In this document: positions 13,176-62,190 of the stretch, one piece after another | Layout of the letters: every line of letters starts with the position of its first letter | Position numbering within the stretch: position 1 is the first letter of the stretch | NCBI GenBank assembly: GCA_045586845.1 | Contig: JAZNBB010000058.1 | Location: forward strand, 6,532-70,531 | Direction: 5' to 3' | DNA length: 64,000 nucleotides | DNA from: Eubacteriales bacterium | Lineage (GTDB): Bacteria > Bacillota > Clostridia > Oscillospirales > CAG-272 | Translations under genes and position numbers: made by a program | The notes under the pieces: model-generated | What the model was told of the DNA's origin: nothing | Database searches by the model: none | What the model saw: the letters and a program-made list of their open reading frames with translations, nothing else

Positions 13176-13204
13176 GTAGGGACCGGCGTCCTCGACGGTC
13201 CTAC
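13176..13204. repeat. GTAG-headed palindromic unit (type A, loop GCGTCCTCGA)
   Basis: GTAGGGACCG-GCGTCCTCGA-CGGTCCTAC, located between the GNAT-like gene and the carrier protein gene. Confidence 0.7.
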
Positions 13205-13228
13205 TCTACAACAAGAAAGGATACAACT

Positions 13229-13450
13229 ATGCTTGAAAAACTCACCGAAATCATTGGTCGCGTGAACCCCGGAATTGACGTTTCCACCGTCACCCCCGAG
13301 ACCAAGCTCATGGAAGACCTTAAGTTGGACTCTCTGTCCATTATGCTGCTGGCTATGGAGATCGAGGCAGCGTTTGGCTTCCAGTTCAACGAGCCCGTAC
13401 AGTTCGTCACCGTACAGGACGTGTGCGATTACCTTGCCGCTAAAGCGTAA
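13229..13450 (+). CDS. acyl carrier protein (divergent, non-AcpP-like)
   Basis: 73 aa with the phosphopantetheine attachment motif LDSLS in MEDLKLDSLSIMLLAMEIE. The start MLEKLTEII was chosen in place of the 13124 ORF-track start, whose extension overlaps the upstream gene and the repeat. Confidence 0.7.
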   Translation: MLEKLTEIIGRVNPGIDVSTVTPETKLMEDLKLDSLSIMLLAMEIEAAFGFQFNEPVQFVTVQDVCDYLAAKA

Positions 13451-13461
13451 TATCCCCAAAA

Positions 13462-13495
13462 AGAACGGTCTGCATGGTGCAGGTCGTTCTTTTTG
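13462..13495 (+). terminator. rho-independent terminator after the carrier protein gene
   Basis: AGAACGGTCTGCA-tgg-TGCAGGTCGTTCT followed by TTTTT. Confidence 0.7.
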
Positions 13496-13636
13496 CTTTT
13501 AAAAAATGAATATCACAACTTGTAGGGAGCTACATCGCGCCGCGTTTTTGAAATATTCCCGAAAAATCTTGAGTGCTCTTGATTTTACGGAAAATATTTG
13601 ATATAATAGCATACAACGACAAGAAAGGGGAGCGCA

Positions 13637-14221
13637 ATGCTATCATTCGACATTTCCCAAGAGGTCTTTACCTGTGCGGTCTACCCGGGTGATCCTGCGC
13701 CTGCGCGACAGGTGCTTGCAAGCCTTGACGCGGGTGACGTGTGCAATCTGACTGCGTTTTCCATGTGTGCGCACAACGGCACGCATATAGACGCACCCGC
13801 GCATTTTATCGCGGGCGGCAAGACCGTGGACGCTCTGCCGCTTGACGCGCTGATCGGCAATGCCATCATAATCTCGCATGTGGGCGATATCACGGCGTCC
13901 GACGCACACCGCATGCTGGAAATGGCGGGAAATATCAAAAAGCTGCTGATCAAGGGCAACGCCACGCTGACGCTTGAGGCTGCCGAGGTGCTTGCAGAGG
14001 CGGACATCGAGCTTTTTGGCAACGAATCGCAAACGGTTGGCCCCGAATCCGCACCCATGGCGGTGCATAAACGCTTGCTTGGCGCGAATGTCGTGCTGCT
14101 GGAGGGCATACGCCTTTCACACGTACCCGACGGAGAATATCTGCTTTGTGCAGCCCCGCTAAACCTCGGCGGTGCGGACGGTGCACCCTGCCGCGCAGTT
14201 TTGATCGATTTATCTGAGTAA
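13637..14221 (+). CDS. cyclase family protein (kynurenine formamidase-like fold)
   Basis: Has the HNGTHIDAPAHF motif characteristic of the putative cyclase family. RBS aaagggga. Confidence 0.7.
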   Translation: MLSFDISQEVFTCAVYPGDPAPARQVLASLDAGDVCNLTAFSMCAHNGTHIDAPAHFIAGGKTVDALPLDALIGNAIIISHVGDITASDAHRMLEMAGNIKKLLIKGNATLTLEAAEVLAEADIELFGNESQTVGPESAPMAVHKRLLGANVVLLEGIRLSHVPDGEYLLCAAPLNLGGADGAPCRAVLIDLSE

Positions 14222-14233
14222 AGGAGAGAAAAC

Positions 14234-14785
14234 ATGACTGAATTTCTTGCAATGCTTGAATCCGTTTCGCCGATCTTAGTCTGCTTTCTGATCTGTGCCG
14301 CAAAGATCCTGGAGATCACCATTCAATCGCTCAAAACCTGCATGATGGTCAAGGGGCAGCGGCTCAAAGCCGCAGGCTTGGGCTTTGTGGAGTGCATCAT
14401 CTGGGGTCTGGTGGTGTCGGGTGTCATCGGCACGCTGGGCGATAACCCCTTGCGCCTGGTCTTTTACTGCGCGGGCTACGCCGCGGGTCTGTCCCTCGGC
14501 TCTACCATTGAGGGCAAGATCGCGCTCGGCACGTCCAACTTAGAGCTGATCGCAAGCGACGAGAGCACCGAGAAGATCACGGCTTACTTAAAAGAGAACG
14601 ATCTTGGCTATACCGTCCTGCCCGGACACGGCGCAACCGAGAAGATGAATATGATCTTTATCGTGCTGCCCAGAAAGCGTACCAAGCGCGTGCTTGGCGA
14701 GATCCGTAAGTGTTGCGATAATAAGGTCTTTGTAGTCGCATCCGAGGTCAGCAAGTATGCCGGCGGCTACGGTATGGTGAAGTAA
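14234..14785 (+). CDS. UPF0316/DUF2179 family membrane protein
   Basis: Three N-terminal TM helices are followed by a C-terminal soluble domain. The overall pattern resembles the YebE/UPF0316 family. Confidence 0.6.
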   Translation: MTEFLAMLESVSPILVCFLICAAKILEITIQSLKTCMMVKGQRLKAAGLGFVECIIWGLVVSGVIGTLGDNPLRLVFYCAGYAAGLSLGSTIEGKIALGTSNLELIASDESTEKITAYLKENDLGYTVLPGHGATEKMNMIFIVLPRKRTKRVLGEIRKCCDNKVFVVASEVSKYAGGYGMVK

Positions 14786-14805
14786 AAGCGCAGCTTTTTA
14801 CAACT

Positions 14806-15004
14806 GCGGCTGTGCCGCAATATCATATTTGTAGGGACAGGCGTCCTCGACTGTCCGTTTCTGCAATACCACTATGACCACAGGTCACAATATCACTTTG
14901 TTATCCGTAGGGGCGACCATCGGTCGTCCGCTATCGCGGCGGCAGCAAGCCACCGCCCTACGACGTGGCTCGATGCGTACGGGCGATCATTGATCGCCCG
15001 CCCC
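14806..15004. repeat. array of short palindromic units (GTAG-headed and hairpin+AATATCA[CT] types)
   Basis: The units, in order:
- GCGGC-tgt-GCCGC followed by AATATCAT, 14806-14826.
- GTAGGGACAG-GCGTCCTCGA-CTGTCC, 14831-14856.
- AATACCAC, 14865-14872.
- TGACC-aca-GGTCA followed by CAATATCAC, 14875-14896.
- GTAGGGGCGACC-atc-GGTCGTCC, 14907-14933.
- A reverse-orientation unit ending CACCGCCCTAC, 14937-14960.
- GTACGGGCGATCA-t-TGATCGCCC, 14978-15004. Confidence 0.75.
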
Positions 15005-15035
15005 TTCGGATAAAATCTACCGAAAGGAGAGCACT

Positions 15036-15626
15036 ATGGCTAATAAGAAAAACAAGAAAAAGCAGCGACTTTTTTCGCTCACGTGGAAATTCTGGCTGGG
15101 GTTTATTATTGTGCAACTGTGCTATTTGACAGTGTGTTCTAACGCGGTATATTCGGAGTGGCCGTGTAATGACAGAAATACGCAAACTGTTATTGGAGAA
15201 GTAGAGAATATCAGGGATGTAAGCACAGGCTTCAGAATTTATCGCGGTCACGGTTCGAAAGGTTACCTGGAGATTACCGTGAACGGGCAACCGTACCGCT
15301 TGTACGTTCAAAGCAATCAAAAGGAAATGAGCACTTCCGATGTTAAAGATAATCTTGCTATCGGTGATAGCGTAGAGATCGCGTACAAGGCACAAATTCG
15401 TATGTTCAAAGAATGCAGCGTTGTGGTCGGCATGAAAGATGACACGCAGACCTACCGTACGATAGAGGCTTATAACGCCAATGCCCGCGTGCTTTTGCCC
15501 GTATTCTCGGTATTGATGCTGGTCGCCGAGGCACTGTTGTGCCTGCCGCTTTACGCAGAATATTTGCTCAGGTTGATCGTGCTCGTCAGAACCCGAAAAA
15601 CGGAATGCGAAAAGAAAAAGAAATAG
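15036..15626 (+). CDS. hypothetical membrane protein
   Basis: Has a lysine-rich N-terminus, one N-terminal and one C-terminal hydrophobic segment, RBS gaaaggag and a terminator downstream. I recognise no motif. Confidence 0.45.
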   Translation: MANKKNKKKQRLFSLTWKFWLGFIIVQLCYLTVCSNAVYSEWPCNDRNTQTVIGEVENIRDVSTGFRIYRGHGSKGYLEITVNGQPYRLYVQSNQKEMSTSDVKDNLAIGDSVEIAYKAQIRMFKECSVVVGMKDDTQTYRTIEAYNANARVLLPVFSVLMLVAEALLCLPLYAEYLLRLIVLVRTRKTECEKKKK

Positions 15627-15639
15627 ACCAAACGAAAAA

Positions 15640-15671
15640 CCAACGCTTATGACACGTAGGCGTTGGTTTTT
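15640..15671 (+). terminator. rho-independent terminator
   Basis: CCAACGC-(loop)-GCGTTGG followed by TTTTT. Confidence 0.65.
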
Positions 15672-15854
15672 GTATGTTTGTGCCCTGCGTTTTAACATGG
15701 AAACGGCACGCATATTTCCCACCAATTTTTACATACTAACCAAAGAATGTCTGCGCGCGGGGGAAGGGGACTGCAATTCGACCAAAATTTAGCACTCATG
15801 ACGTGAAATTAGCAGAGTTCATAAAATATTAACAAAGAAAAAGCACAAAGGGGC

Positions 15855-15883
15855 TTGACAAACGGGCTGAAAAGTGCTAAATT
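15855..15883 (+). promoter_or_regulatory. sigma-A type promoter of the hrcA operon
   Basis: TTGACA at 15855-15860, a 17-nt spacer, then TAAATT at 15878-15883. Confidence 0.6.
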
Positions 15884-15894
15884 TATGTCAGCGG

Positions 15895-15921: not shown

Positions 15922-15959
15922 AATTCGTCAAATAATACCCACAAGAAAGGAGATTTGCC

Positions 15960-20699: not shown

Positions 20700-21659
20700 A
20701 TGGTAGATAAGGATTACGTTTGCGAGGATTGGGGTGAGACTACCCAATGGACGCAGATTCGCGTCACGGTCAAGCTTGAGCAGTTAGACGCGCTTGTCGC
20801 GGTTATGAGTATGATCAATAACAATCTCATGATCGAGGATTACAGCGACATCGATCTCAAGACCTGCTACGGCGACCTGATAGACGAGAGCATTCTCAAC
20901 GCGGATAAGACCATCGCGTCTGTGTCGGTTTACTTACCCGTGGAGCGTGATATCCGTGAGGACGTGGAGTTTTTGCGCGAAATGCTTGCAAAGGACGGCA
21001 TTGAGGGCGAAATCAAGATGATCGGTCTTAATGAAGAGGACTGGGCAAACGCATGGAAGGCGTATTATAAGCCGATCAAGATCGGCTCCAAGATCGTCAT
21101 CGTGCCCGCTTGGGAAAAGTATGAGGCTGCAGAGGGTGAATTGATTGTGCGTATGGATCCCGGTATGGCGTTCGGAACGGGCACGCACGAGACCACCAGA
21201 TTGGTTATCGGTCTTTTGGAAAAGTATACCACCCCCGGCGTGCGTATGTTGGACGTGGGTACGGGCAGCGGTATTCTTGCCATCTGTGCCTCCCGTTTGG
21301 GTGCAGGGGAGTGTAAGGCGTACGATATCGATCCCATGTCGGTGCGCGTGGCACGCGAGAACATCAAGGATTCTGGTCTCGACAATATCACCTGTGACCA
21401 ATCCGACCTGTTGCGCTCGGTGGATATTGCGGGCGGCAAATACGGACTTGTGTGTGCCAATATCGTAGCGGACATCATCATTCGCATGACGCCCGACGTG
21501 CATAAGTACATTGCAAAGGACGGCGTGCTGTTGGCTTCGGGTATCATTATGGAACGCAGTCAAGATGTGGTTAATTGCTTTGAAGCACACGGCTTTGAGA
21601 TCGTTGAGCGCGCCGAGGAAAACGGTTGGTGCGCACTCGCGGTCAAATTAAGAAAATGA
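20700..21659 (+). CDS. prmA: ribosomal protein L11 methyltransferase PrmA
   Basis: Shows the SAM-binding block LDVGTGSGILAI and the FGTGTHETT motif, and occupies the conserved position after dnaJ. Confidence 0.85.
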   Translation: MVDKDYVCEDWGETTQWTQIRVTVKLEQLDALVAVMSMINNNLMIEDYSDIDLKTCYGDLIDESILNADKTIASVSVYLPVERDIREDVEFLREMLAKDGIEGEIKMIGLNEEDWANAWKAYYKPIKIGSKIVIVPAWEKYEAAEGELIVRMDPGMAFGTGTHETTRLVIGLLEKYTTPGVRMLDVGTGSGILAICASRLGAGECKAYDIDPMSVRVARENIKDSGLDNITCDQSDLLRSVDIAGGKYGLVCANIVADIIIRMTPDVHKYIAKDGVLLASGIIMERSQDVVNCFEAHGFEIVERAEENGWCALAVKLRK

Positions 21660-22201
21660 TCGAATATTCGCTGATCAGATCGAGCCGAAAAACCATCGGC
21701 ATACAGATCAAGGATGGCAAGGTAATCGTGCGCGCCCCCCGGCGTCTGCCCAAAAGAGCGATCGATGCATTTGTGCTAAAGCATGCGGACTGGGTCGATC
21801 GGCATCTTTCCAAGGCAAAGTCAGGGCAGGAGCTGCCAAAGCTTTCCGAGAGTGAACTCAAAGCGCTTGTCGCACAGGCAAAACAGACCATTCCCGCGCG
21901 CGTGGCGCATTACGCAGATCTGCTTGGTATAGAATATGGGCGCATCACGATCCGCACGCAAAAAACGCGTTGGGGCAGTTGTTCGTCGAAAGGAAATCTC
22001 AACTTTAATTGTCTTTTGATGTTAGCCCCGCCCGAGGTGCTGGACAGCGTGGTCGTGCATGAGCTGTGTCACCGCAAGCATATGAATCACTCAAGGGACT
22101 TTTATGCCGAGATCGCGCGTATCATGCCGGACTATAAAGCTCGTCACGCGTGGCTTAAGCAAAACGGCACGGCACTGATGGCAAGAGCGCATGGAAATTG
22201 A
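21656..22201 (+). CDS. M48-like zinc metallopeptidase, DUF45/YgjP family
   Basis: Has the HELCHRKHMNHS (HExxH) motif. The start MIEYSLIRS overlaps the prmA stop (ATGA). Confidence 0.7.
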   Translation: MIEYSLIRSSRKTIGIQIKDGKVIVRAPRRLPKRAIDAFVLKHADWVDRHLSKAKSGQELPKLSESELKALVAQAKQTIPARVAHYADLLGIEYGRITIRTQKTRWGSCSSKGNLNFNCLLMLAPPEVLDSVVVHELCHRKHMNHSRDFYAEIARIMPDYKARHAWLKQNGTALMARAHGN

Positions 22202-22266
22202 ATATAGAGTTGCAACAAAAAGCATACAAGTAGGGGCGTTTAAATAACGCCGCAACGGATACAAAA

Positions 22267-27671: not shown

Positions 27672-30011
27672 ATGAACATGAAAAGAAATGCATTCATATT
27701 ATTTGCTCTGCTATTGGCAATCACTATGCTGTTTGCTGCGTGCGATCAAGGCGAAGGTCAAGAAGAAATTACCAATGAAGTGATTGTTGGTGGTGACATC
27801 GTTACCGAGGAAGATGCCACAACGGATAATGGCGAAAACGCTGAGCCTGATGCGACAACTGAAGATCCCAACCAGCCGCACGAGCACGCATTTGGCGAGT
27901 GGACAACGGTCAAGGCGGCAACCTGCACGCAGGCAGGTAAGCAAGAGCGCATTTGTTCATGTGGCAAAAAAGAAAAAATGACTCTTGATGCACTCGGTCA
28001 TGCCGAAGTGATTGATGCGGCGGTAGAACCGACGTGCTCTGAGCAGGGATTAACAGAAGGCAAACATTGCGCTAATTGTGATACGGTATTTGTGGCGCAG
28101 GAGGTAATGCCTGCAACGGGAGAGCATGTGTATGTTAATGAAGTATGTCAGGGTTGCTCGGCGAAACTGCAATACAGTGAAGGCTTGGTGTTTGTATCAA
28201 ATGGTGATGGCACTTGTTACGTCAGTGATATTGGTTCCTGTACAGATACGGATATTGTGATTCCGAAACGTTCTCCTCTTGGCGATAGCGTGACGAGCAT
28301 TGGATCTTTGGCGTTCGATAACTGCGTTGGAATGGTAAGCATCACTATCCCTGATAGCGTGACAAGTATTGGCACTCAAGCATTCTACAATTGTACCGGC
28401 TTGAAGCGTATAACTATTCCGGATAGTGTGACAAGCATTGGCTGGAGTGCATTTTCTGACTGTACCGGTTTGACGCGTATTACCATTCCGGATAGCGTGG
28501 TAGACATTAATACCGGTGCATTCTCCAACTGCACCGGCTTAACGAGCGCTATCATTGGCGACAGCGTGATAAGTATTGGTATTGATGCATTCTGGCATTG
28601 CCGCAGCTTGACGAGCATTACGATTCCGGATAGCGTGACGAGCATTGGCAATAGCGCGTTCGGTGGCTGCACCGGCTTGATGAGTATTACCATTGGTGAT
28701 AGCGTGACGAGCATTGGCAATAGAGCGTTCGAAGGATGCACCGGTTTGACGCGTATTACCATTCCGGATGGTGTGACGAGCATAGGATATTCTGCGTTCG
28801 AAGGATGCACCGGCTTGACGAGCATTACTATTCCGGATAGCGTAACGAGCATTGCTTGTCCGGATAGCATGACAATTGTTGGCGATGGGGTGTTCTCAGG
28901 TTGCACCAGGTTGACAAGCTTAATTGTTTCGGAAGGAAACACTACTTATCACAGCGCAGGGAATTGCATTATTGAAACGGAAAGCAAAACCTTGGTTGCC
29001 GGATGCAATACGAGCATTATTCCTGCGGACGGTAGTGTGACAAGCATTGGTGCATTTGCGTTCTCCGGCTGCGAGGGTTTGACAAGTGTTACCATTCCGG
29101 ATGGCGTGACAAGCATTGGCATTAAAGCGTTCTCTATCTGCAAAGGCTTGACAAGTGTTACCATTCCGGATAGTGTGACAAGTATTGATACTCGTGCGTT
29201 CGATTTCTGCACAGGATTGACGAGCATTGCCATTCCGGATAGTGTGACAAGCCTTGGAGCATTTGTGTTCGAAGGGAGTTATGACCTCATTCGAAAAGAG
29301 CAGGGCGTTAGCTATGTGGATGGTTGGGTGGTGGATTGCGACTCTAATGTTACAACAGTTGACTTAACTGGCACGAGAGGCATAGCTGCATCAGCGTTTT
29401 ATGGGTGCAACTTGACGAGTATTGCTATTCCGGATAGTGTGATAAGCATTGGTGATAGGGCGTTTGAACGTTGTACAGGCATGACGAGTGTTACCATTGG
29501 AAACGGTGTGACAATGATTGGCGAGTATGCGTTCTCCGACTGTACCGAATTGACGAGTGTTACCATTGGAAACGGTGTGACAATGATTGGCAAGTATGCG
29601 TTCTCCGACTGTACCGGCTTGACGAACATCACGATTTCGGATAGCGTGGCAAGCATTGGTGATTCAGCGTTCAAGGGGTGCACAAATATGACGAGTATTA
29701 CTATTCCGGGCAATGTGACAAGTATCGGTGATTGGGCGTTTAAAGGTTGCACAAGTATGACGAGTGCTACCATTGGAAACGGTGTGACAATGATTGGCAA
29801 GTTTGCGTTCTCCGACTGTACCGGCTTGACGAACATCACGATTTCGGATAGCGTGACAAACATTGGATTTGCTGCGTTTTCTGACTGCACCGCCTTGACC
29901 GACGTGTATTTCACCGGTACCGAGCAAGAATGGGCTGCAATTGAGCTTGGAGACTTCAACGACGCTCTTTCAACCGCCACCATCCACTACAACTACGTTC
30001 CCGAAGAATAA
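27672..30011 (+). CDS. surface lipoprotein with BspA-type leucine-rich repeats
   Basis: A signal peptide with lipobox LFAAC is followed by a Cys-rich segment. Then come about 25 repeats of about 23 aa of the form ITIPDSVTSIGxxAFxxCTGLTS. Confidence 0.8.
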   Translation: MNMKRNAFILFALLLAITMLFAACDQGEGQEEITNEVIVGGDIVTEEDATTDNGENAEPDATTEDPNQPHEHAFGEWTTVKAATCTQAGKQERICSCGKKEKMTLDALGHAEVIDAAVEPTCSEQGLTEGKHCANCDTVFVAQEVMPATGEHVYVNEVCQGCSAKLQYSEGLVFVSNGDGTCYVSDIGSCTDTDIVIPKRSPLGDSVTSIGSLAFDNCVGMVSITIPDSVTSIGTQAFYNCTGLKRITIPDSVTSIGWSAFSDCTGLTRITIPDSVVDINTGAFSNCTGLTSAIIGDSVISIGIDAFWHCRSLTSITIPDSVTSIGNSAFGGCTGLMSITIGDSVTSIGNRAFEGCTGLTRITIPDGVTSIGYSAFEGCTGLTSITIPDSVTSIACPDSMTIVGDGVFSGCTRLTSLIVSEGNTTYHSAGNCIIETESKTLVAGCNTSIIPADGSVTSIGAFAFSGCEGLTSVTIPDGVTSIGIKAFSICKGLTSVTIPDSVTSIDTRAFDFCTGLTSIAIPDSVTSLGAFVFEGSYDLIRKEQGVSYVDGWVVDCDSNVTTVDLTGTRGIAASAFYGCNLTSIAIPDSVISIGDRAFERCTGMTSVTIGNGVTMIGEYAFSDCTELTSVTIGNGVTMIGKYAFSDCTGLTNITISDSVASIGDSAFKGCTNMTSITIPGNVTSIGDWAFKGCTSMTSATIGNGVTMIGKFAFSDCTGLTNITISDSVTNIGFAAFSDCTALTDVYFTGTEQEWAAIELGDFNDALSTATIHYNYVPEE
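29482..29856 (+). repeat. near-identical in-frame DNA repeats inside the LRR gene (69-bp tandem; 207-bp displaced copy)
   Basis: Three copies starting at 29482, 29551 and 29758 share tgacgagtg(t/c)taccattggaaacggtgtgacaatgattggc(a/g)agt(a/t)tgcgttctccgactgtacc. Copies 2 and 3 continue identically through ggcttgacgaacatcacgatttcggatagcgtg. Confidence 0.8.
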
Positions 30012-30070: not shown

Positions 30071-30110
30071 ATCAAGGACTGTATCACTTGGATGCAGTCC
30101 TTGATTTTTT
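30071..30110 (+). terminator. rho-independent terminator after the LRR gene
   Basis: ATCAAGGACTG-(loop)-CAGTCCTTGAT followed by TTTTTT. Confidence 0.75.
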
Positions 30111-30130
30111 ATAAATAGTTGTTGCAAGCG

Positions 30131-30154
30131 CGGGCGATCACAGATCGCCCCTAC
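30131..30154. repeat. GTAG-headed palindromic unit (type B), reverse orientation
   Basis: CGGGCGATCACAGATCGCCCCTAC is the exact reverse complement of the unit at 30205-30228. Confidence 0.8.
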
Positions 30155-30204: not shown

Positions 30205-30228
30205 GTAGGGGCGATCTGTGATCGCCCG
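30205..30228. repeat. GTAG-headed palindromic unit (type B), forward orientation
   Basis: GTAGGGGCGATCTGTGATCGCCCG forms a perfect 24-bp inverted doublet with 30131-30154, separated by a 50-bp spacer. Confidence 0.8.
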
Positions 30229-34307: not shown

Positions 34308-34847
34308 TTATTCTGCTTCGCTTCCAAAGGGCAGGGCGTTGAAGCGGTCTGCAATGGCGTTCCAGGTCAGAATGTCCACAAGACCGTTTTGCTCCATGCC
34401 GAGATAGCCCTGCATTTGGCGCACAGCCTCTGCGGTGGTGGCATCGTACCTTCCCGTCACCTCAGGCGGCGTGAGCAGATAGAGCAGCGTCAGCTCTCCA
34501 AGCATGTATTGCAATACAGCGACGTCAATGCCCACTGCACCGAGGTCGAGATATCCTCCGGGCGGTGTTTGCAAAAACAGGGAAACCGGTGTGGGCGGTG
34601 AATACAGCGCAAGCGATGCCAGGTAATCGGCGTAAAGCCTTTCCCAGGTAACACGGTCTGCCGTGCCGGTCACAGGAAGACCTGCCGTACGTTGATAGTC
34701 GGACAACGCATTACGCGTGGCAGACTCAAAAATGCCATCTACCGGCACTTGACCGATGCCCTCGGTATGATAAGCAAGCTGTCGCAGATACCGTTGCAGA
34801 TTGGCAACGGCGGGCGAATAATTGGGATGATTGCTTTGATCGGGCAT
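34308..34847 (-). CDS. peptidoglycan-binding domain (PG_binding_1) protein
   Basis: Contains two copies of the LQ.YL......G.....DG.F...T..A...FQ...GL...G......TW pattern. I place the start at MPDQSNH, which follows RBS aaaggag. Confidence 0.65.
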   Translation of the reverse strand: MPDQSNHPNYSPAVANLQRYLRQLAYHTEGIGQVPVDGIFESATRNALSDYQRTAGLPVTGTADRVTWERLYADYLASLALYSPPTPVSLFLQTPPGGYLDLGAVGIDVAVLQYMLGELTLLYLLTPPEVTGRYDATTAEAVRQMQGYLGMEQNGLVDILTWNAIADRFNALPFGSEAE

Positions 34848-34934
34848 AATTGCTCCTTTCATACATTCAAAGCTGATAAATTATAAGATATTATGAAGAA
34901 TTGAAATTTGCCATAAAGCAAATTTTTCCGCAAC

Positions 34935-35031
34935 GTTCCGCCCGTGGCGGAACATATCACTCGCGCGTAGCGCGAATATCACTTTTGCGATAGCAAAAAT
35001 ATCACATATCGCCTACGGCGAAATATATCAC
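34935..35031. repeat. four tandem units of variable short hairpin followed by ATATCAC
   Basis: The four hairpins are GTTCCGC-ccgtg-GCGGAAC, CGCGC-gta-GCGCG, TTTTGC-gata-GCAAAA and TCGCC-tac-GGCGA. Each is followed by (A)ATATCAC, at 34954, 34976, 34999 and 35025, a spacing of 22-26 bp. Confidence 0.8.
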
Positions 35032-35032
35032 T

Positions 35033-35057
35033 GCAATGAAAGCATGGCTTTCATTGC
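35033..35057 (-). terminator. stem-loop overlapping the stop codon of the upstream PG-binding gene
   Basis: GCAATGAAAGC-atg-GCTTTCATTGC forms a perfect 11-bp stem that includes the TGA stop at 35051-35053 (minus strand). Confidence 0.5.
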
Positions 35058-39053: not shown

Positions 39054-39129
39054 TTTAATCTTGAACCAAGGCACCAAGGGCGGTGGCTTGCTGACGCCGC
39101 GCCAATCAGACCGCTTGCCGAAAATACAG

Positions 39130-53284: not shown

Positions 53285-53884
53285 ATGAAAAAAACAGACA
53301 CCCCGGATACCCGCCCGCTGCTGGAGGATCAGAAGATCATCGATCTGTATTGGCAAAGGGAAGAGAGCGCCATTACGGAAACCGATCGCAAGTACGGAAA
53401 GTATCTGATGACCATTGCCTACAATATCCTGCACAACGACCCCGACAGCGAGGAGTGCCTCAACGATACGTATCTTGGTACGTGGAACGCCATTCCGCCA
53501 GCCAAGCCCACGCTGTTTCAGGTCTTTTTGTCCAAGATCATGCGCAATACTGCCGTGGTACGCTACAAAAAGAACCACGCACAGAGCCGCGTGCCAAGCG
53601 AGATGACCGTTTCCTTGGACGAGTTGGAGCAGTACATACCCTACGAGCCCTCGGCAGAGGACGATTACGACGTGTACAGGCTCAGTCGACTGCTCAGCGA
53701 CTATTTGCGCAAAATGTCCGAAAAGCGCGCGTTTATCTTTATTTGCAGATACTATTGTGCCGATCGCATTTCGGATATAGCCGCCATGCTGCACGTCAGC
53801 GAGAGCACGGTCTACCGTGAGCTGGACGAGATCAAAAAGGGCTTGCGCGAAATTCTGATCAAGGAGGGATATCGCAATGCGTAA
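53285..53884 (+). CDS. sigma-70 family RNA polymerase sigma factor (ECF-like, regions 2 and 4)
   Basis: Region 2-like block YGKYLMTIAYNILHNDPDSEECLNDTYLGTW and region 4 HTH block ISDIAAMLHVSESTVYRELDEIKKGL. RBS aaaggag. Confidence 0.75.
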   Translation: MKKTDTPDTRPLLEDQKIIDLYWQREESAITETDRKYGKYLMTIAYNILHNDPDSEECLNDTYLGTWNAIPPAKPTLFQVFLSKIMRNTAVVRYKKNHAQSRVPSEMTVSLDELEQYIPYEPSAEDDYDVYRLSRLLSDYLRKMSEKRAFIFICRYYCADRISDIAAMLHVSESTVYRELDEIKKGLREILIKEGYRNA

Positions 53885-55838
53885 GGATAAAACTGAATTT
53901 ACGCTGGACGTGGTGTCCGGTATTGATGAGGAGATCGTAGATCGTAATCTTGCAAAACGCTATAAGTTGTGGCAGAGAAGAGGCAAGCGCAGTCGCGTTG
54001 CGCTGATCTCGCTTGTGGCAGCACTTTTGAGTATTTGCCTTGTCTTGGGCGCATTTATGATCGTGCCGCTCTTTGGCAAGCAGGTACCTGTATACCAAGG
54101 TATGACCGTATCTACCGAAGCACCCGTCGTGCCCGATTCTGCACTTGCGTTGCCCGTGCCCATGACCTCTGTGCTGAGCACGTCAAGCACGCTGCCCGCA
54201 TACGGACTTGTGCCGCTTGGAGAGCAGGAAACGCCTGAACCCCAAGCGAACCCCGAGGACGAAACCGAACCTGTCATTTTCGGCAAGACGTATTACGCGC
54301 TCAAAAATGAGGATATTTACATTCATATTCACATTTCCAACCCGGACGGCTTTGAGATCGTTTCCTTTACGCTCAACGGCGTCAAGTATACGAACTATAT
54401 GTTTGAGCCGGGCTCTGATCTGGAGACGCTGATCCTCAAATACAACGTAGGTGACGTGGACGGCTTGCAGGAATACACCATCGATGCCATCAAGTACATC
54501 GACGGAGAAGCGATCAAGGACGTCCGTATGAAAGGTGACAAGACGGTTAAGGTCTACGTTAACGACGATACGCAGGCGTTGCGATTTGAGGCGGAGCAGG
54601 AGTTTACCACCTTGACCTTTACCCCCGTGTGGAACGAGAGCTTTACAGGGGAAAAGACCATTCAAACGCTTGCACTCTACAAGGGTGAAGAGCTCCTGCG
54701 CGAGCTTTCACCCACCGATACCGAGATCCGGGATCTGCCCATGGAAACGCGCCTGATGCTGGTTGCCACCTATCAAGATGGCGACACAGTCAAAACGCTG
54801 CGTTACATATTCGATACGCCTAAATATTCCGAGGGGCTGCAGTTCAATAACGGAGTGATCGTTGGAATAGGAGCCTGCACCGATTCCGTGCTGTATCTCA
54901 ATGCTCCGATCGGGGAAAAAGCCTTTGAAAGCAACAACGGTATATATACCGTATATCTGGGTCCCGGCGTCACGTCGGTTGGCAGCAACGCTTTTCACGC
55001 TTGCACAAAGTTAAGCAAGGTCGTGCTGTCGGAAAGCCCTATCAGCCTTGGCGAATGGGTTTTTGCAGAGTGCATCAGTCTTGCGGATGTCAGCCTTTCC
55101 GGTCAAGTTGCAGAGATTCCGGATTATGCATATTTTGCATGTGAAAGCTTGGAGAGCATAGTGATCCCCGAGGGCGTAACAAAGCTTGGCGTGGGGGTGT
55201 TTGAGGCATGCGGGAAGCTTAAGAGCGTTCAACTTCCGGAGTCATTGAAGTCTGTCGGCGCTACTTGCTTTAGTCAATGTGGGGTTCTGGAGAGCATAGA
55301 ACTGCCGGACGGTATTACTGAAATTGGCGCGAATCCTTTCAACAGTTGTTATAGCCTTAAAAGCATCAAGCTCCCCGCAAGCCTTACAGAGATTCCCGAC
55401 AGTATGTTTTCCGGATTAAATAATCTTTATAGCATAGTGATTCCGGAGAGCGTAACATCTATCGGTCATATGGCATTCATCGGTAGCGCGCTTGGCAAGG
55501 TTGAATTTCCGGAAAGCGTTACTTCAATCGGGATAGGTGCTTTTCTTGGCTGTGAGAATCTTCGGAGTGTAACGATCCCGGCGTCTGTTACGTACGTTGA
55601 ATGGACTGCGTTTTCGCAATGTGAGAACTTGAAGACCATGTACATCGAGGGAAATGATACCAAATTCGTTCTATCGGGAGCTGCACCGGGACAGGCACCC
55701 TTTGAAATTCGTTACTACCTGAATGACGTGCATTATACGGGAACCATGCAGGAATGGCAAACCTATTACGGGAATGCCCCCAGATGGGCAGAAATGAAAT
55801 GTACCGTTCACTGCACGGATGGCGATATTGCGTATTGA
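53877..55838 (+). CDS. single-pass membrane protein: anti-sigma-like N-terminus plus BspA-type LRR ectodomain
   Basis: The start overlaps the sigma gene stop by 8 nt. A cytoplasmic roughly 45 aa is followed by a TM helix (VALISLVAALLSICLVLGAFMIV). The extracytoplasmic region carries about 10 LRR units (VIPEGVTKLGVGVFEACGKLKSV and similar). Confidence 0.6.
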   Translation: MRKDKTEFTLDVVSGIDEEIVDRNLAKRYKLWQRRGKRSRVALISLVAALLSICLVLGAFMIVPLFGKQVPVYQGMTVSTEAPVVPDSALALPVPMTSVLSTSSTLPAYGLVPLGEQETPEPQANPEDETEPVIFGKTYYALKNEDIYIHIHISNPDGFEIVSFTLNGVKYTNYMFEPGSDLETLILKYNVGDVDGLQEYTIDAIKYIDGEAIKDVRMKGDKTVKVYVNDDTQALRFEAEQEFTTLTFTPVWNESFTGEKTIQTLALYKGEELLRELSPTDTEIRDLPMETRLMLVATYQDGDTVKTLRYIFDTPKYSEGLQFNNGVIVGIGACTDSVLYLNAPIGEKAFESNNGIYTVYLGPGVTSVGSNAFHACTKLSKVVLSESPISLGEWVFAECISLADVSLSGQVAEIPDYAYFACESLESIVIPEGVTKLGVGVFEACGKLKSVQLPESLKSVGATCFSQCGVLESIELPDGITEIGANPFNSCYSLKSIKLPASLTEIPDSMFSGLNNLYSIVIPESVTSIGHMAFIGSALGKVEFPESVTSIGIGAFLGCENLRSVTIPASVTYVEWTAFSQCENLKTMYIEGNDTKFVLSGAAPGQAPFEIRYYLNDVHYTGTMQEWQTYYGNAPRWAEMKCTVHCTDGDIAY

Positions 55839-56471: not shown

Positions 56472-56497
56472 GTAGGGGACGACGTCCTCGACGTCCC
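56472..56497. repeat. GTAG-headed palindromic unit (type A), forward
   Basis: GTAGGGGACG-ACGTCCTCGA-CGTCCC. Confidence 0.75.
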
Positions 56498-56548: not shown

Positions 56549-56574
56549 GGTGCGTCGAGGACGTCGCACCCTAC
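56549..56574. repeat. GTAG-headed palindromic unit (type A), reverse
   Basis: GGTGCG-TCGAGGACGT-CGCACCCTAC; its reverse complement is GTAGGGTGCG-ACGTCCTCGA-CGCACC. It forms an inverted doublet with 56472-56497, separated by a 51-bp spacer. Confidence 0.75.
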
Positions 56575-59172: not shown

Positions 59173-59193
59173 ACCATCAAAGAAAGACAAAGT

Positions 59194-62043
59194 ATGAAAC
59201 AAGAAAAAATCGTTATTCGCGGTGCACGCGTCAACAATCTCAAGAATATTGACGTCGAGATCCCGCGTGATCAGCTGGTGATACTGACAGGGCTTTCGGG
59301 CTCGGGAAAGTCCTCGCTGGCGTTTGATACCGTATATGCAGAGGGGCACAGACGCTTTGTCGAGTCGCTGTCCTCGTATGCACGTATGTTCCTCGGTCAA
59401 ATGGATAAGCCTGACGTGGATACCATCGACGGTCTGAGCCCCGCCATTTCGATCGACCAAAAGACCACCTCCAAAAATCCGCGCTCTACCGTGGGCACCG
59501 TGACCGAAATTTACGATTACCTGCGCTTGCTCTACGCACGCGTGGGTGTGCCGCATTGCCCGGTCTGTGGCAAGGAGATACGCCGACAGAGCACAGATAC
59601 CATCATTGATAAGATATGCGAGCTGCCGGAGGGAGAGCGCTTTTTGGTGCTTGCACCCGTTGTGCGCGCACAAAAGGGTATGCACGAAAAGGTGCTGAAC
59701 GATGCCAAAAAAAGCGGCTATGCCCGCGTGCGCATCGATGGCAGCTTGTACGATCTTGGCGAGGACATCTCGCTGGATAAGAACAAAAAGCACGATATTG
59801 AGGTCGTAGTGGACCGTCTTGTGCTCAAGGAAGGTGTGCGTTCACGTCTTGGCGACTCGGTGGAGACCGCGTTGAATCTTGCCGAAGGGCATCTCTTGAT
59901 CGTGACCGTACCGCGCGGAGAGGGCAAGCCCATTGAGCTGTCATTTTCGCAAAGCTATGCTTGTGAGGAGCACGGTATTTCAATCGGAGAGCTTGAGCCC
60001 CGTATGTTTTCCTTTAATAATCCCACGGGCGCGTGTCCGGCTTGTGCGGGGCTTGGTGAGATGCAGACGGTATCTGCCGCCAAGGTCATTCCCGATAAGC
60101 GACTGTCGCTGCGCGGCGGTGCCATTGCGGTCAACGGCTTTAAGACCTTGGAGGAGGACAGCTGGAACGGTCCTTTGTTTGCCGCTGTGGGTGAAATAGT
60201 GGGCTTTACCTTGGATATGCCCATCCGCGAGTACAGCCCGTCTGCGCTTGACGCGCTGCTGCACGGCACGGGCGATCGCGTCTATCGCATCAAGCGTCAT
60301 TTTGCGGGCGTGGATCACGAACAAACGCTGACCTTCCACGGTATTCTTGAAATGGTGGAAAGCCGCATGAAAAACGGCGGAATGTTCGGCAAGGAGTATT
60401 ATACACAATTCGTGCAAGAGGCGGATTGCCCCGTTTGCGGCGGCAAGCGACTCTCTCCCGTGGTGCTGGGCGTGACCGTCGGCGGACTCAACATTCACGA
60501 TTTCTGTGCTATGTCGGTTGAAAATGCACTGGCGTTTGTCGAGTCTCTGCAGTTTTCGGGCGGTGAAGCGGTCATTTCGCGTGAGATCCTCAAGGAGATC
60601 CGCGCGCGTTTGGGCTTTCTTGTCAGCGTGGGACTCGGTTATCTGACGCTGGGGCGCAAAGCGGGCACGCTGTCGGGCGGTGAAGCGCAGCGCATCAGGC
60701 TTGCCACGCAGATCGGCTCTGCGCTGACGGGTGTGCTGTATATTTTGGACGAGCCCAGCATAGGTCTGCACTCCCGTGACAATTCCAAGCTGATTGCCAC
60801 GCTCAAAACCTTGCGTGACCTTGGAAATACTGTTATCGTGGTCGAGCACGACGAGGAGACCATGCAAGAATCCGACTATATCATCGACGTAGGTCCCGGT
60901 GCGGGCGTGCACGGTGGTCAGATCGTTGCTGCGGGCACACCTGCCGAGGTTGCGAAAAATCCCGATTCGCTGACGGGCGGCTATCTCTCGGGTAGACTCT
61001 CTATACCCGTGCCGACAGTGCGCAGACCGGGCAATGGCAATTTCCTTCGTGTTTTTGGCGCAGAGGAGCACAACCTGAAAAAGTTGAACGTGGAGATCCC
61101 GCTGGGTTGTTTTGTATGTGTCACCGGCGTGTCGGGATCGGGAAAATCCTCGTTGGTCAACGGTATCATCCATCCTGTGTTGGCGGATAGACTCAATAAC
61201 GCCATCACGTACCCCGGTAAACACGAGCAGCTGACGGGCGACGAGCATCTTGACAAGATCATCTGCATCGATCAAAGCCCCATAGGCAGAACGCCGCGCT
61301 CCAATCCCGCCACCTATACAGGGCTTTTTGCCGATATCCGCGATCTGTTCGCACAGACCAAAGACGCGAAGGCAAAGGGTTACGGACCGTGCAGATTTTC
61401 CTTTAACGTCAAGGGCGGACGCTGCGAAGCCTGCGAGGGTGACGGCGTGCGCTGTATTGAAATGCACTTTTTGCCCGACGTTTACGTGACGTGTGATGTA
61501 TGTAAGGGCAAGAGATACAACCGTGATACGTTGGATGTCAAGTATAAAGGGAAGAACATCAATGACGTGCTGGAAATGACGGTTGAGGAGGGCGTTGCCT
61601 TCTTTGACGGTATGCCGCGTATTCTGCGCAAGCTCAAAACGCTGCAGGACGTCGGACTTGGCTATATCAAGATCGGTCAGTCGTCCACCACGCTCTCGGG
61701 CGGTGAGGCGCAGCGCGTCAAGCTTGCCACCGAGCTTTCCAAGCGCGATACCGGCAAGACCATCTACGTGCTGGATGAGCCCACCACGGGTCTGCACACG
61801 GCTGATGTGGCGCAGCTGCTGGGTGTGCTGCAACGTCTTGTGGACGGTGGAAACACGGTGCTTGTCATCGAGCACAACATGGATGTCATCAAGTGTGCCG
61901 ACTATATCATAGACCTTGGTCCCGAGGGTGGAGACGGTGGCGGCACCTTGGTTGCAAAGGGCACACCCGAGCAGGTCGCGGAGTGCGAGAGGTCGTATAC
62001 CGGACAGTACTTGCAGAAGGTAATAGGTAAGAGTGAAAAGTGA
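59194..62043 (+). CDS. uvrA: excinuclease ABC subunit A
   Basis: Has two ABC ATPase modules (GLSGSGKSSLAF, GVSGSGKSSLV; LSGGEAQR twice) and zinc-finger Cys clusters. Confidence 0.96.
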   Translation: MKQEKIVIRGARVNNLKNIDVEIPRDQLVILTGLSGSGKSSLAFDTVYAEGHRRFVESLSSYARMFLGQMDKPDVDTIDGLSPAISIDQKTTSKNPRSTVGTVTEIYDYLRLLYARVGVPHCPVCGKEIRRQSTDTIIDKICELPEGERFLVLAPVVRAQKGMHEKVLNDAKKSGYARVRIDGSLYDLGEDISLDKNKKHDIEVVVDRLVLKEGVRSRLGDSVETALNLAEGHLLIVTVPRGEGKPIELSFSQSYACEEHGISIGELEPRMFSFNNPTGACPACAGLGEMQTVSAAKVIPDKRLSLRGGAIAVNGFKTLEEDSWNGPLFAAVGEIVGFTLDMPIREYSPSALDALLHGTGDRVYRIKRHFAGVDHEQTLTFHGILEMVESRMKNGGMFGKEYYTQFVQEADCPVCGGKRLSPVVLGVTVGGLNIHDFCAMSVENALAFVESLQFSGGEAVISREILKEIRARLGFLVSVGLGYLTLGRKAGTLSGGEAQRIRLATQIGSALTGVLYILDEPSIGLHSRDNSKLIATLKTLRDLGNTVIVVEHDEETMQESDYIIDVGPGAGVHGGQIVAAGTPAEVAKNPDSLTGGYLSGRLSIPVPTVRRPGNGNFLRVFGAEEHNLKKLNVEIPLGCFVCVTGVSGSGKSSLVNGIIHPVLADRLNNAITYPGKHEQLTGDEHLDKIICIDQSPIGRTPRSNPATYTGLFADIRDLFAQTKDAKAKGYGPCRFSFNVKGGRCEACEGDGVRCIEMHFLPDVYVTCDVCKGKRYNRDTLDVKYKGKNINDVLEMTVEEGVAFFDGMPRILRKLKTLQDVGLGYIKIGQSSTTLSGGEAQRVKLATELSKRDTGKTIYVLDEPTTGLHTADVAQLLGVLQRLVDGGNTVLVIEHNMDVIKCADYIIDLGPEGGDGGGTLVAKGTPEQVAECERSYTGQYLQKVIGKSEK

Positions 62044-62056
62044 ATAAGTGTTGTAG

Positions 62057-62083
62057 AAAACCCTTGCGCCGCAAGGGTTTTCT
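62057..62083 (+). terminator. rho-independent terminator after uvrA
   Basis: AAAACCCTTGC-gcc-GCAAGGGTTTT followed by CTT. Confidence 0.7.
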
Positions 62084-62093
62084 TAAATCTAAC

Positions 62094-62122
62094 GTAGGGG
62101 CGACCATCGGTCGTCTGCCTAC
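62094..62122. repeat. GTAG-headed palindromic unit (type B)
   Basis: GTAGGGGCGACC-atc-GGTCGTCTGCCTAC is nearly identical to the unit at 14907-14933. Confidence 0.75.
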
Positions 62123-62164
62123 ATCGCTGCCACCTGTAAGGTTATCCGTCCAACAACAACTCTT

Positions 62165-62190
62165 GTAGGGACCGGCGTCCCCGACGGTCC
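62165..62190. repeat. GTAG-headed palindromic unit (type A)
   Basis: GTAGGGACCG-GCGTCCCCGA-CGGTCC has the same stem as the unit at 13176, with one loop change. Confidence 0.75.

Follow-up and report, generated by a model that had tools for sequence, protein, structure and literature searches.

Extragenic GTAG-headed hairpins resembling REP elements in Clostridia and RAYT-like genes that carry them in related genomes

Introduction

Short palindromes with a 5' GTAGGG head recur between the genes of a 64-kb stretch of Clostridia DNA (the window, i.e. the whole stretch that was analysed), which raises the question of whether they are counterparts of the GTAG-type REPs and REPINs of Proteobacteria, such as the E. 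coli REP/BIME and the Pseudomonas REPINs (Di Nocera 2013, PMC3733652; Bertels & Rainey 2011, PMC3116915). We find that the elements are GC-rich DNA hairpins of ~23-29 nt with a GTAG(GG) guide at the 5' foot, and that they are very probably GTAG-type REP elements, divided among no fewer than three co-resident hairpin families (A, B and C) and relying on a mechanism like that of E. coli REP/TnpAREP. In related genomes, the gene for the presumed mobiliser, a RAYT, itself contains copies of these hairpins, and the repeats would represent REP-type selfish DNA. We came across no REP/RAYT family from Clostridia in the literature that we searched, in line with the original prediction that such families are rarely described there; the present one is thus apparently undescribed so far, while in-gene REPs as such are already known from RAYT subclass 2.4.

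Results

The window contains five type A units of 26 nt, with the pattern GTAGGG-NNNG-R-CGTCCYCGA-CNNN-CC, and five type B units of 23 nt (GTAGGGGCGAYC-NNN-GRTCGYCC), as well as a third recurrent type, C, and some decayed copies (Table 1). All ten units named in the original prediction are present in the sequence, with two adjustments: the type B unit placed at 14978 starts one nucleotide earlier and has a mutated head, and 30131 corresponds to the far end of a type B unit on the minus strand. The family members are all extragenic, as had been claimed, lying between long ORFs, with about nine units in sense and three in antisense orientation to the neighbouring genes. The type C unit at 14938 recurs, with compensatory variants, at no fewer than seven other Clostridia loci. 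The singleton at 22230 has no relatives among the fetched loci, so its membership of the family is uncertain.

Table 1. Hairpin units in the 64-kb window.
Positions	Strand	Type	Unit or stem	Remarks
2838-2861	+	C, decayed (possible, uncertain)	GTAGGGCAGTGGCTTGCTCTCGTA	3' arm lost; intergenic
13176-13201 (to 13204 with ...CCTAC)	+	A	GTAGGGACCGGCGTCCTCGACGGTCC; ACCG/CGGT	DNA fold -10 kcal/mol, z -2.7
14831-14856	+	A	ACAG/CTGT	-8.7 kcal/mol, z -4.0
14907-14929	+	B	GTAGGGGCGACC-ATC-GGTCGTCC	one G.T pair
14938-14961	-	C	GTAGGGCGGTGGCTTGCTGCCGCC
14977-14999	+	B	GTACGGGCGATC-ATT-GATCGCCC	head GTAC, not GTAG
22230-22251	+	singleton, GTAGGG head	GTAGGGGCGTT-TAAAT-AACGCC	29 nt past ORF 21626-22201
30132-30154	-	B	GTAGGGGCGATC-TGT-GATCGCCC
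30205-30227	+	B		identical to 30132-30154
39075-39098	+	C, decayed (probable)	CAAGGGCGGTGGCTTGCTGACGCC	mutated head, 3 substitutions; intergenic
56472-56497	+	A	GACG/CGTC	left half of inverted doublet
56549-56574	-	A	TGCG/CGCA	right half of inverted doublet
62094-62116	+	B, partly decayed	GTAGGGGCGACC-ATC-GGTCGTCT	weak fold, z -1.0
62165-62190	+	A	GTAGGGACCGGCGTCCCCGACGGTCC; ACCG/CGGT

The local settings of the units are diverse. The 13176 unit sits between ORF 12037-13173, whose stop lies 3 nt before the unit's start, and a PP-binding/ACP-like gene, whose ATG (13229) lies 24 nt beyond its end; it is a 'double foot' unit, because its 5' GTAGG pairs with a 3' CCTAC. The 14831 unit opens a cluster of four units downstream of ORF 14234-14785, in which the 14907 unit is nearly identical to the distant one at 62094. 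The units at 30132 and 30205 form an inverted pair with the GTAG heads inwards, between convergent genes for an LRR protein and a Clp ATPase, and the latter is the sole unit of the window with a T-run (GTTTTTT) on its 3' side. The heads of the 56472/56549 doublet point outwards across a 51-nt gap, between tRNA-Met and uvrB. The 62094 unit lies downstream of a uvrA-like gene and of that gene's terminator-like hairpin, and the 62165 unit matches, at 26 of 26 positions, units arrayed inside the RAYT ORF of another locus, L203.

As DNA, type A units fold as ((((((.((....)).)))))), at -8.7 to -10 kcal/mol, that is, a 6-bp stem topped by an R.A mismatch, CG/CG pairs and a TCCY tetraloop. The motif (G/A)CGTCC(T/C)CGA is indeed kept, as originally noted, but this fold describes it better than the simple loop then proposed. 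In four of the five type B units an 8-9 bp stem closes a 3-nt loop, the 62094 unit being the weak one. We searched species-representative public genomes with the type A pattern, leaving the stem free, and found it at no fewer than 120 loci (at least; 154 matches listed). Scoring covariation only at positions without constraint in the search pattern, we found the free stem bases fully complementary in 146 of the 154 matches listed, with 17 fully paired stem variants, whereas 2000 partner shuffles left on average 27.7, and never more than 45, of them fully paired; the predicted stem covariation is thereby strongly confirmed. Outside the unit, only a Y at -1/-2 and a G at +26 are conserved, the flanks being otherwise random. 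The selection that keeps the hairpin may act on ssDNA recognition by a transposase, and not on an RNA function.

The family is thus far from confined to a few copies in the window. The listed type A loci belong almost all to Clostridia (Oscillospiraceae, Acutalibacteraceae, Ruminococcus, Gemmiger), and identical units were found again in more than 100 independent genomes; judging from such matches, the families have a wide distribution among Clostridia of the gut and rumen (Oscillospiraceae, Acutalibacteraceae and the Ruminococcus group). ORFs of at least 150 aa hold 20 of the 154 listed units, though such ORFs make up 78% of the bases; nine units are within RAYT-like small genes, and a crude ORF map places 11 in other ORFs of this length. 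The genes flanking the listed units are co-directional in 54 cases, convergent in 24 and divergent in seven. Among the matches listed, co-directional spacers carry 35 sense and 19 antisense units, and 13 inverted neighbours have their GTAG heads outwards, with gaps of mostly 22-139 nt. In the nearest relatives (75% UvrA identity), the matching uvrA-flanking positions are free of units. No presence/absence polymorphism was found between close strains, a point against the REP reading.

Using E. coli RayT as query, we detected ORFs of ~165 aa in seven of the listed type A loci (phmmer E-values 7e-10 to 2e-5). Their products pass the gathering threshold of Pfam Y1_Tnp and fit the NCBIfam model REP_Tyr_transpos (E = 3e-18) far better than the IS200 model (2e-3), with 66 bits, which is under the equivalog cut-off of 80 for a REP-associated tyrosine transposase. 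Their sole PDB match is 4ER8 (TnpAREP; E = 5e-4 to the chain). The HUH (PNH[IV]H), WQ, DH..R and Y...NP motifs align with E. coli W94, Q95, E100/H101, R104, Y115 and N119, residues whose roles in TnpAREP are given by Quentin 2018 (PMC6006769). At the codon level, a sense unit encoding V-G-x-G/D-V-L-D-x'-P precedes the HUH motif and an antisense unit encoding G-x-S-G/R-T-P-x'-P-T follows it, so that the half of the gene coding for HUH lies between two inverted units. Both peptide motifs occur in 108 of the 120 closest homologues, where x and x' covary according to the hairpin pairing, since the units lie in frame inside the ORF. Another RAYT gene has a type B unit 25 nt upstream of its ATG and a second, antisense, past the HUH motif, and the RAYT ORF of L203 holds arrays of identical type A units. 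RAYT-like Y1-HUH genes carrying type A and B units in related Clostridia support the REP/RAYT interpretation first put forward; the 64-kb window holds no RAYT gene that we could find, so the cognate enzyme of its copies is assumed.

Discussion

In the mechanism that we propose by analogy with E. coli, a unit would fold once the DNA is single-stranded, and a cognate Y1-HUH RAYT, presumably of the RAYT-like clade described above, would recognise the GTAG head and the constant upper hairpin, i.e. in type A the TCCY tetraloop and, beneath it, the CG/CG pairs and the R.A mismatch, while requiring of the lower stem only that it pairs. The catalytic tyrosine would nick and rejoin the strand, and binding, cleavage and transposition would seed copies into non-essential spacers, mostly downstream of genes. 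Only copies still able to fold would be propagated, which would explain the perfect compensatory variation in a stem of free sequence. Secondary host uses, mRNA 3'-end protection and occasional termination, may be added to this; the bias towards the sense strand (35:19; about 9:3 in the window) is not needed by a selfish element acting at the DNA level and leaves room for a role at the RNA level.

Several other explanations of the hairpins were weighed against the REP reading. Chance, or the composition of a GC-rich genome, would account for the modest enrichment of the GTAGGG hexamer alone (23 in the 64-kb window versus 13.0 expected; largest shuffle 21) and for two of the 12 hairpin-associated matches, at 22655 and 33854, which lie inside genes and are probably fortuitous. 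However, those 12 matches (hairpin of at least 7 bp) are ~10 times the expectation from first-order Markov simulations (mean 1.25, maximum 7), the excess over random that the original prediction implied, and control hexamers of the same composition followed by a hairpin give 0-3 matches; this count, the stem pairing (146 of 154 listed) and the recurrence of identical units in over 100 independent genomes refute chance, to which we give practically no weight. Intrinsic (Rho-independent) terminators that share a GC-rich stem are hardly more credible. The TTTTTT after the 30205 unit and the GTTTT after a few units in other genomes fit them, but TTTT lies within 10 nt on the 3' side in only 13 of the 154 listed units (8%), with no T enrichment in the position profile; moreover, uvrA and the LRR gene are each already followed, next to the units, by a separate terminator-like hairpin with a T-run (62060-62085 and 30075-30115, respectively), and terminators typically have neither a conserved 5' GTAG head nor a constant tetraloop. 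That the units are merely terminators is thus largely refuted.

A different ssDNA system, with the units as IS200/IS605 ends, their miniature derivatives or sites of other DNA-binding proteins, is unlikely, if less so than terminators: IS200/IS605 ends likewise use a hairpin and a short guide, the window lacks a RAYT gene and the RAYT role is putative, but in the window no unit has a TnpA/TnpB-type gene next to it, the units do not have the paired left-end/right-end layout of an IS, and the unit-carrying proteins favour the REP-associated model and keep the GTAG-contacting residues of E. coli TnpAREP. Slightly better placed, yet still improbable, are host-selected RNA elements (mRNA 3'-end stabilisers, RNase processing signals or RNA-binding-protein sites) with a superficial REP likeness. 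They would suit the placement mostly downstream of genes, the commoner sense orientation, the G.T pairs of type B copies, tolerated in RNA, and the position of the 13176 unit in an operon spacer just past a stop codon. Against them, a third of the co-directional copies is antisense, inverted doublets are common, the flanks are not conserved, Rfam has no match to the units even at E ≤ 1, unit positions are not conserved in the nearest relatives, and a host RNA signal would not explain why units of either orientation lie within RAYT genes and next to them. A secondary RNA role is known for E. coli REPs, and by analogy is possible for these units.

As probable REP elements, the Clostridia (Bacillota) units share with their proteobacterial counterparts a hairpin of 20-40 nt whose foot carries a 5' GTAG, numerous scattered extragenic copies, a preference for co-directional and convergent spacers, frequent inverted dimers, several families per genome and an association with RAYT genes. 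They are short (23-26 nt) and mostly singletons or in loose clusters, whereas regular doublets characterise REPINs. Proteobacterial REPs usually have sequences specific to a species; type A, by contrast, keeps its head and upper hairpin invariant in many genera, with free variation at the middle three pairs of the lower stem, and this conservation speaks against the REP reading.

The nearest parallel for the in-gene units is TnpAY1 subclass 2.4 (RAYT group 4), in which REPs are inserted within the tnpAREP gene (Quentin et al. 2018, PMC6006769). Compared by described motifs and REP positions, both groups have the HuH motif NH[IFV]H, WQ, a Y...NP tyrosine motif and in-frame REPs of variable length and sequence after the HuH strand; subclass 2.4 'double-foot' REPs recall the 13176 unit, and their stem bottom of three G-C pairs recalls type B. 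The Clostridia proteins differ in their tyrosine motif, YIxxNP (YIDTN, YIDENP) instead of YIxNNP, and in a second fixed REP site, located before the HuH motif or shortly upstream of the start codon. Subclass 2.4 is reported from Cyanobacteria, Bacteroidetes and 'various phyla', Clostridia not being named (PMC6006769), and the supplements of the subclass 2.4 literature examined contain no Clostridia members. To E. coli TnpAREP/RayT (PDB 4ER8; Messing 2012, PMC3479197; also Ton-Hoang 2012) the relationship is remote, with ~165 aa, the HUH motif, the catalytic Tyr and the GTAG-contacting W/Q/H/R in common; E. coli RayT lacks both REP-coded segments, and its REPs flank the gene. Rickettsia palindromic elements, among other in-ORF REPs (Di Nocera 2013, PMC3733652), exceed the Clostridia units in length (about 100-150 bp), and no RAYT is known for them; the Clostridia in-frame copies confidently identified are in the RAYT gene itself, the window copies all being extragenic, and like the Rickettsia elements they are in-frame palindromic repeats that are tolerated and translated.

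GTAG-headed hairpin units in the window

The ten units named in the original prediction, five of type A and five of type B, are all present in the sequence, together with a third kind of GTAG-headed hairpin (type C), relatives of the latter and a singleton (see table). Type A has the form GTAGGG-NNNG-(G/A)-CGTCC(T/C)CGA-CNNN-CC and type B the form GTA(G/C)GGGCGAYC-NNN-GRTCGYC(C/T), with a unit length of 23-26 nt. Folded as single-stranded DNA, type A gives a lower stem of 6 bp topped by an R.A mismatch, two C-G pairs and a TCCY tetraloop, and type B a stem of 8-9 bp closed by a loop of 3 nt; in nine of the ten window units, the DNA folds reach -8 to -11 kcal/mol (z -2.6 to -4.7). In all three types the GTAG head reaches up to or includes the first G of the stem, as expected of REPs, for which Quentin et al (2018) require GT[AG]G 0-2 nt 5' of the hairpin foot; unit 14977 is the single copy whose head is changed to GTAC.

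Two doublets are observed (56472/56574 and 30154/30205), the second of which is an inverted pair of identical units. Near-identical units also lie far apart, 14907 with 62094 and 13176 with 62165, and these distant likenesses and the identical inverted pair argue for copying. Unit 13176, which has the double-foot form, lies in an operon-like 55-nt spacer (window 13171-13231), starting 3 nt past a TAG stop and ending 24 nt ahead of the start codon (ATG) of a gene for a PP-binding, acyl-carrier-like protein; so placed, it might influence translational coupling or mRNA processing.

Scanning the window for hairpins of 7 bp or more headed by GTAGGG yielded 12 sites, where first-order Markov simulations average 1.25 and never exceed 7, and eight control hexamers of the same composition gave 0-3 hairpin sites each. 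Two hits, 22655 and 33854, are imperfect hairpins within long ORFs and look like chance. The density is 10-13 copies per 64 kb, every one intergenic, and the neighbours are ordinary chromosomal genes: a GNAT-like ORF, the acyl-carrier-like gene, a DUF5698/DUF2179 protein, BspA-type LRR proteins, a Clp ATPase, tRNA-Met, uvrB, a uvrA-like gene and an ECF sigma factor.

Hairpin units in the window and RAYT-like (REP-associated tyrosine transposase, Y1-HUH) ORFs in fetched public-genome loci (L-numbers); type A and B units were read in the sequence at the coordinates named
Feature	Record	Position	Strand	Remark
Type A unit	window	13176	+	
Type A unit	window	14831	+	
Type A unit	window	56472	+	
Type A unit	window	56574	-	
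Type A unit	window	62165	+	
Type B unit	window	14907	+	
Type B unit	window	14977	+	
Type B unit	window	30154	-	
Type B unit	window	30205	+	
Type B unit	window	62094	+	
Type C unit	window	14938-14961	-	GTAGGGCGGTGGCTTGCTGCCGCC
Decayed type C relative	window	39075		
Decayed type C relative, perhaps	window	2838		
Singleton GTAGGG-headed hairpin unit	window	22230		
RAYT-like ORF	L003	4144-4653	-	internal type A units, one sense and one antisense
RAYT-like ORF	L019	5012-5533	-	internal type A units, one sense and one antisense
Two tandem RAYT paralogues	L019	5012-6640	-	
RAYT-like ORF	L112	3114-3626	+	internal type A units, one sense and one antisense
RAYT ORF	L026			internal type A units
RAYT ORF	L034			internal type A units
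RAYT ORF	L071			internal type A units
RAYT ORF	L073			internal type A units
RAYT ORF, 327 aa	L203	5001-5984	+	internal type A units
RAYT homologue, REPtron-like	L202	1536-2135	+	type B units upstream and inside

The type A family and the covariation of its stem

We then scanned one genome per bacterial or archaeal species with the pattern GTAGGGNNNNRCGTCCYCGANNNNCC, in which the variable stem is left free. At least 120 loci match, and the family is therefore not confined to the window copies. By record title, the listed loci are nearly all Clostridia/Eubacteriales, a handful being otherwise labelled; the groups include Oscillospiraceae, Acutalibacteraceae, Ruminococcus, Gemmiger and Faecousia, and the cultured carriers among the matches listed are Ruminococcus flavefaciens ATCC 19208 and Y1 and Gemmiger formicilis ATCC 27749.

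Over the 154 matches of the listed loci and the window, pairing between the two unconstrained tetranucleotides is complete in 146, with 17 fully paired stem variants. Re-dealing the 3' partners, which served as the covariation statistic, gave a mean of 27.7 paired matches and a maximum of 45 in 2000 shuffles, so that the stem covariation claimed from the window units is significant by this control. Among the same 154 matches no flanking position is conserved except -1/-2 (pyrimidine) and +26 (G), the rest being random, which indicates that type A is a self-contained element of ~29 nt rather than a segment of a larger conserved RNA. The other two types, B and C, recur across the type A genome set, type C with a compensatory change from T.G to G-C in public loci, and 846 kb of control loci around uvrA, drawn from a diverse set of bacteria, contain no type B.

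In the nearest relatives found by UvrA (75% protein identity, metagenome scan), the uvrA flanks carry no units, showing that the sites are not conserved regulatory positions; no precise empty sites were resolved in these flanks. In an all-versus-all comparison of the loci, the sole uvrA-adjacent indel (between the uvrA loci L136 and L139) is a small HTH gene and not a REP. At a uvrA locus of 66% UvrA identity (L126:5906-6729), three units of the form GTAGGGGCGAAC-AGY-GTTCGCCC, two of them in an inverted doublet, lie directly downstream of uvrA; as they are of another type, the uvrA-downstream spacer has there been colonised by a different REP family.

Placement relative to genes and alternative readings

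Gene maps of the fetched loci are crude ORF calls. A map at ≥90 aa put 59 units "inside ORFs" and was rejected, because spurious ORFs in GC-rich spacers flagged the intergenic units of the window too; it was remade at ≥150 aa. ORFs of this length hold 13% of the 154 listed matches though they cover 78% of the bases, the other 87% lying outside. Among the matches listed, co-directional spacers predominate (54), followed by convergent (24) and divergent ones (7), and within co-directional spacers 35 units are sense and 19 antisense. Near neighbours form 13 pairs with GTAG outside, 5 with GTAG inside and 4 tandem pairs, the gaps of the 13 outward inverted cases being mostly 22-139 nt. Such a spacer preference, both orientations and inverted neighbours are known for GTAG REPs (Di Nocera et al, 2013; PMC3733652).

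An intrinsic terminator would combine the hairpin with a downstream T-run, and a TTTT within 10 nt downstream is found in 13 of the 154 listed matches and, in the window, at 30205 only. The terminator reading is largely refuted by this count, and the units are not merely terminators. A known structured RNA was likewise rejected, as no Rfam 15 match overlaps any window unit, either at the gathering score or at E ≤ 1. That the dispersed units might be decayed fragments of RAYT genes is contradicted by flanks that are random past ±2 nt; in addition, a search of the window for RAYT-like ORF fragments of at least 25 aa gave no match. The sense-strand bias and the placement downstream of genes leave room for a secondary role at the RNA level.

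RAYT-like proteins in related genomes

Using E. coli RayT from MG1655 as query against all stop-to-stop ORFs of the fetched loci, we found matching ORFs of ~165 aa in seven type A loci; the same search of window ORFs gave no RAYT homologue within the 64 kb. Two of three proteins tested score 26-29 bits with Pfam Y1_Tnp (cut-off 23). With the NCBIfam model for REP-associated tyrosine transposases (NF047646) they reach 65.9 bits (E 3e-18) and 60.9 bits (E 1e-16), short of the equivalog cut-off of 80 bits and far above the 18 bits obtained with the IS200 model. By these profile scores, the proteins are divergent relatives, not equivalogs, of the E. coli type. Their sole PDB match is 4ER8, E. coli TnpAREP.

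The Y1-HUH core motifs are present: the catalytic HUH motif PNH[IV]H, NIWQR, and YIxxNP with a single catalytic Tyr. The tyrosine motif Y...NP aligns with E. coli RayT, and the WQ, D-H and R residues align with W94, Q95, E100/H101 and R104, the residues that contact GTAG in E. coli (Quentin et al, 2018; PMC6006769). The units are physically linked to these putative RAYT homologues, which, as judged from the alignment, keep the catalytic and GTAG-contacting residues. Both hairpin types of the original prediction, A and B, thus occur in or at RAYT genes of related genomes.

Units inside the RAYT genes

At the codon level, each gene carries two type A units, one in sense before HUH and one in antisense just past it. 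The pre-HUH unit reads GTA GGG NNN GRC GTC CTC GAC NNN CCG, or V-G-x-(G/D)-V-L-D-x'-P, where x and x' are the residues encoded by variable stem bases, and the post-HUH unit translates as G-x-S-(G/R)-T-P-x'-P-T. E. coli RayT has neither segment; both are insertions, and they stand out as GC-rich islands within otherwise AT-rich genes. Of the 154 listed matches, 9 fall within these small genes of 0.5 kb.

A database search with one RAYT-like protein returned 6493 relatives, and both peptide motifs are present in 108 of the best 120. In these best 120, the x/x' pairs agree with stem complementarity (T..C, D..V, T..G, A..G; P..V, T..S), and, as read from the translated units, the T..C, D..V and P..V pairs show a protein sequence dictated in part by a DNA hairpin. 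Among these closest homologues (P0001-P0120), 35 combine D..V with T..S and another 35 combine P..V with either T..C or T..G, cross-combinations being rare; this correlation of pre- and post-HUH stem classes may stem from concerted evolution of the two inverted copies or just from the presence of two clades. In more distant representatives, both sites are hypervariable in sequence and length and often tandemly repeated.

The most extended arrays lie in the L203 ORF, with four intact sense copies of GTAGGGACCGGCGTCCCCGACGGTCC (5139, 5208, 5277, 5382), further head-mutated copies and three intact antisense copies (5653, 5716, 5758). Their spacings are multiples of 3 nt, in-frame arrays being favoured by ascertainment since the proteins were found as predicted ORFs. 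The repeated sequence is identical to window unit 62165-62190, and the arrays look like a recent REP amplification within the transposase gene. In L202, a locus from another assembly, one type B unit precedes the likely ATG by 25 nt, the called start (GTG at 1536) probably over-extending through it, and a second lies antisense in the ORF after HUH, where it reads G-R-P-K-V-A-P-T. The two L019 paralogues have nearly identical N- and C-termini and differ in the hairpin types within the ORF: one carries type A, the other GGGCAATTC-AC-GAATTGCCC in sense and GGGCGAT-TCACGT-ATCGCCC in antisense, a difference that points to the REP-coded segments being swapped as modules.

Downstream of the L112 RAYT gene, at a distance of 300-650 bp (L112:3941-4280), four further hairpins headed by GTAGGG form a cluster. 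They are of other types, among them GTAGGGAACGGTCTTGACCGTTCC, which occurs twice, and a variant of type A whose loop is GTCTCCCGGA; several REP families thus gather beside the transposase gene.

Comparison with known REP/RAYT systems

To our knowledge, almost all work on REP/RAYT systems concerns Proteobacteria. Our literature search on RAYT/REP in Clostridia found nothing beyond a remark on group 1 or IS200-type genes there. RAYT-mobilised REPs with a GTAG head are established for Proteobacteria (Di Nocera et al, 2013; PMC3733652). The closest described group is subclass 2.4 of TnpAY1 (group 4 of Bertels), with motifs NH[IFV]H, WQ and YIxNNP, double-foot REPs, REPs in frame within tnpAREP between HuH and Y, and a stated distribution in Cyanobacteria, Bacteroidetes and "various phyla" (Quentin et al, 2018; PMC6006769). 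Compared by published motifs, the Clostridial proteins appear to match this description closely, sharing the HuH and WQ motifs and the in-frame REP after HuH, and window unit 13176 is likewise double-foot. REPs within the gene are thus no novelty of principle. The Clostridial proteins differ in a Y motif, YIxxNP, that lacks the first N, and in a second fixed REP site, before HUH or in the 5' UTR, that is unlisted for subclass 2.4 and by which the HUH-coding half of the gene is enclosed between two inverted units. Compared with known REPs, three base pairs of the type A stem vary freely, whereas the head and upper hairpin are invariant across many genera.

The reading of the Clostridial units as REP/RAYT-type elements, a known kind apparently new to Clostridia, is supported. 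The data show the hairpin, its head, the covariation, the extragenic bias, the doublets, the near-identical dispersed copies and the linkage to RAYT homologues, while mobilisation itself is a step that we infer. By analogy with the E. coli paradigm, a unit would fold on single-stranded DNA, the RAYT would recognise the GTAG head and the constant upper hairpin, and the tyrosine would cut and rejoin the strand, by which copies would disperse; covariation would then be a consequence of staying recognisable for copying. Indirect signs of such putative mobilisation are the identical distant copies, the L203 arrays and the unit-free uvrA flanks of the nearest relatives. We propose a compact recognition code consisting of the GTAG head, the R.A mismatch, the TCCY tetraloop and a free but paired lower stem.

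It is conceivable, though we hold it to be rather doubtful, that the inverted in-gene pair is a conserved functional part of the RAYT system and not an accidental passenger. One possibility is that the pair acts as "master copies", by which enzyme and repeat are co-inherited and the dispersed population is seeded; alternatively, it may serve as a switch, self-targeting or autoregulatory, that acts on the gene or on its mRNA. If the pair is functional, the dispersed units of the window would be progeny of in-gene copies. The REP/RAYT reading would extend the system to gut and rumen Clostridia, a major and poorly studied part of the microbiome, with the family present in cultured strains and RAYT relatives in metagenomes numbering thousands, and would explain recurrent GC-rich intergenic hairpins that are open to misannotation as terminators or novel RNAs. 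The in-ORF copies offer a natural system for the coupling between a transposase and its non-autonomous repeats, and the lesson for genome scanning is to read "VG......P" and "....PT" in the peptide sequences of small Y1 transposases as translated REPs.

Other observations in the window

GTACGG occurs 40 times in the window against 18.3 expected (largest shuffle 30) and is a repeat-family member only at 14977; the excess possibly arises from codon or dipeptide usage. At 34949-35033 on the minus strand, in the stretch that separates ORF 34308-34862 from ORF 35051-36463, the Rfam model of Gut-1 RNA (RF01706) is matched over its full length but below threshold, with 45 bits (gathering score 50; E = 1.3e-5). 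Two large BspA-type leucine-rich-repeat proteins, of a kind typical of gut-associated Clostridia, are encoded on the plus strand at 27672-30011 and 53877-55838 (Pfam LRR_5, E = 4e-151 and 4e-76).
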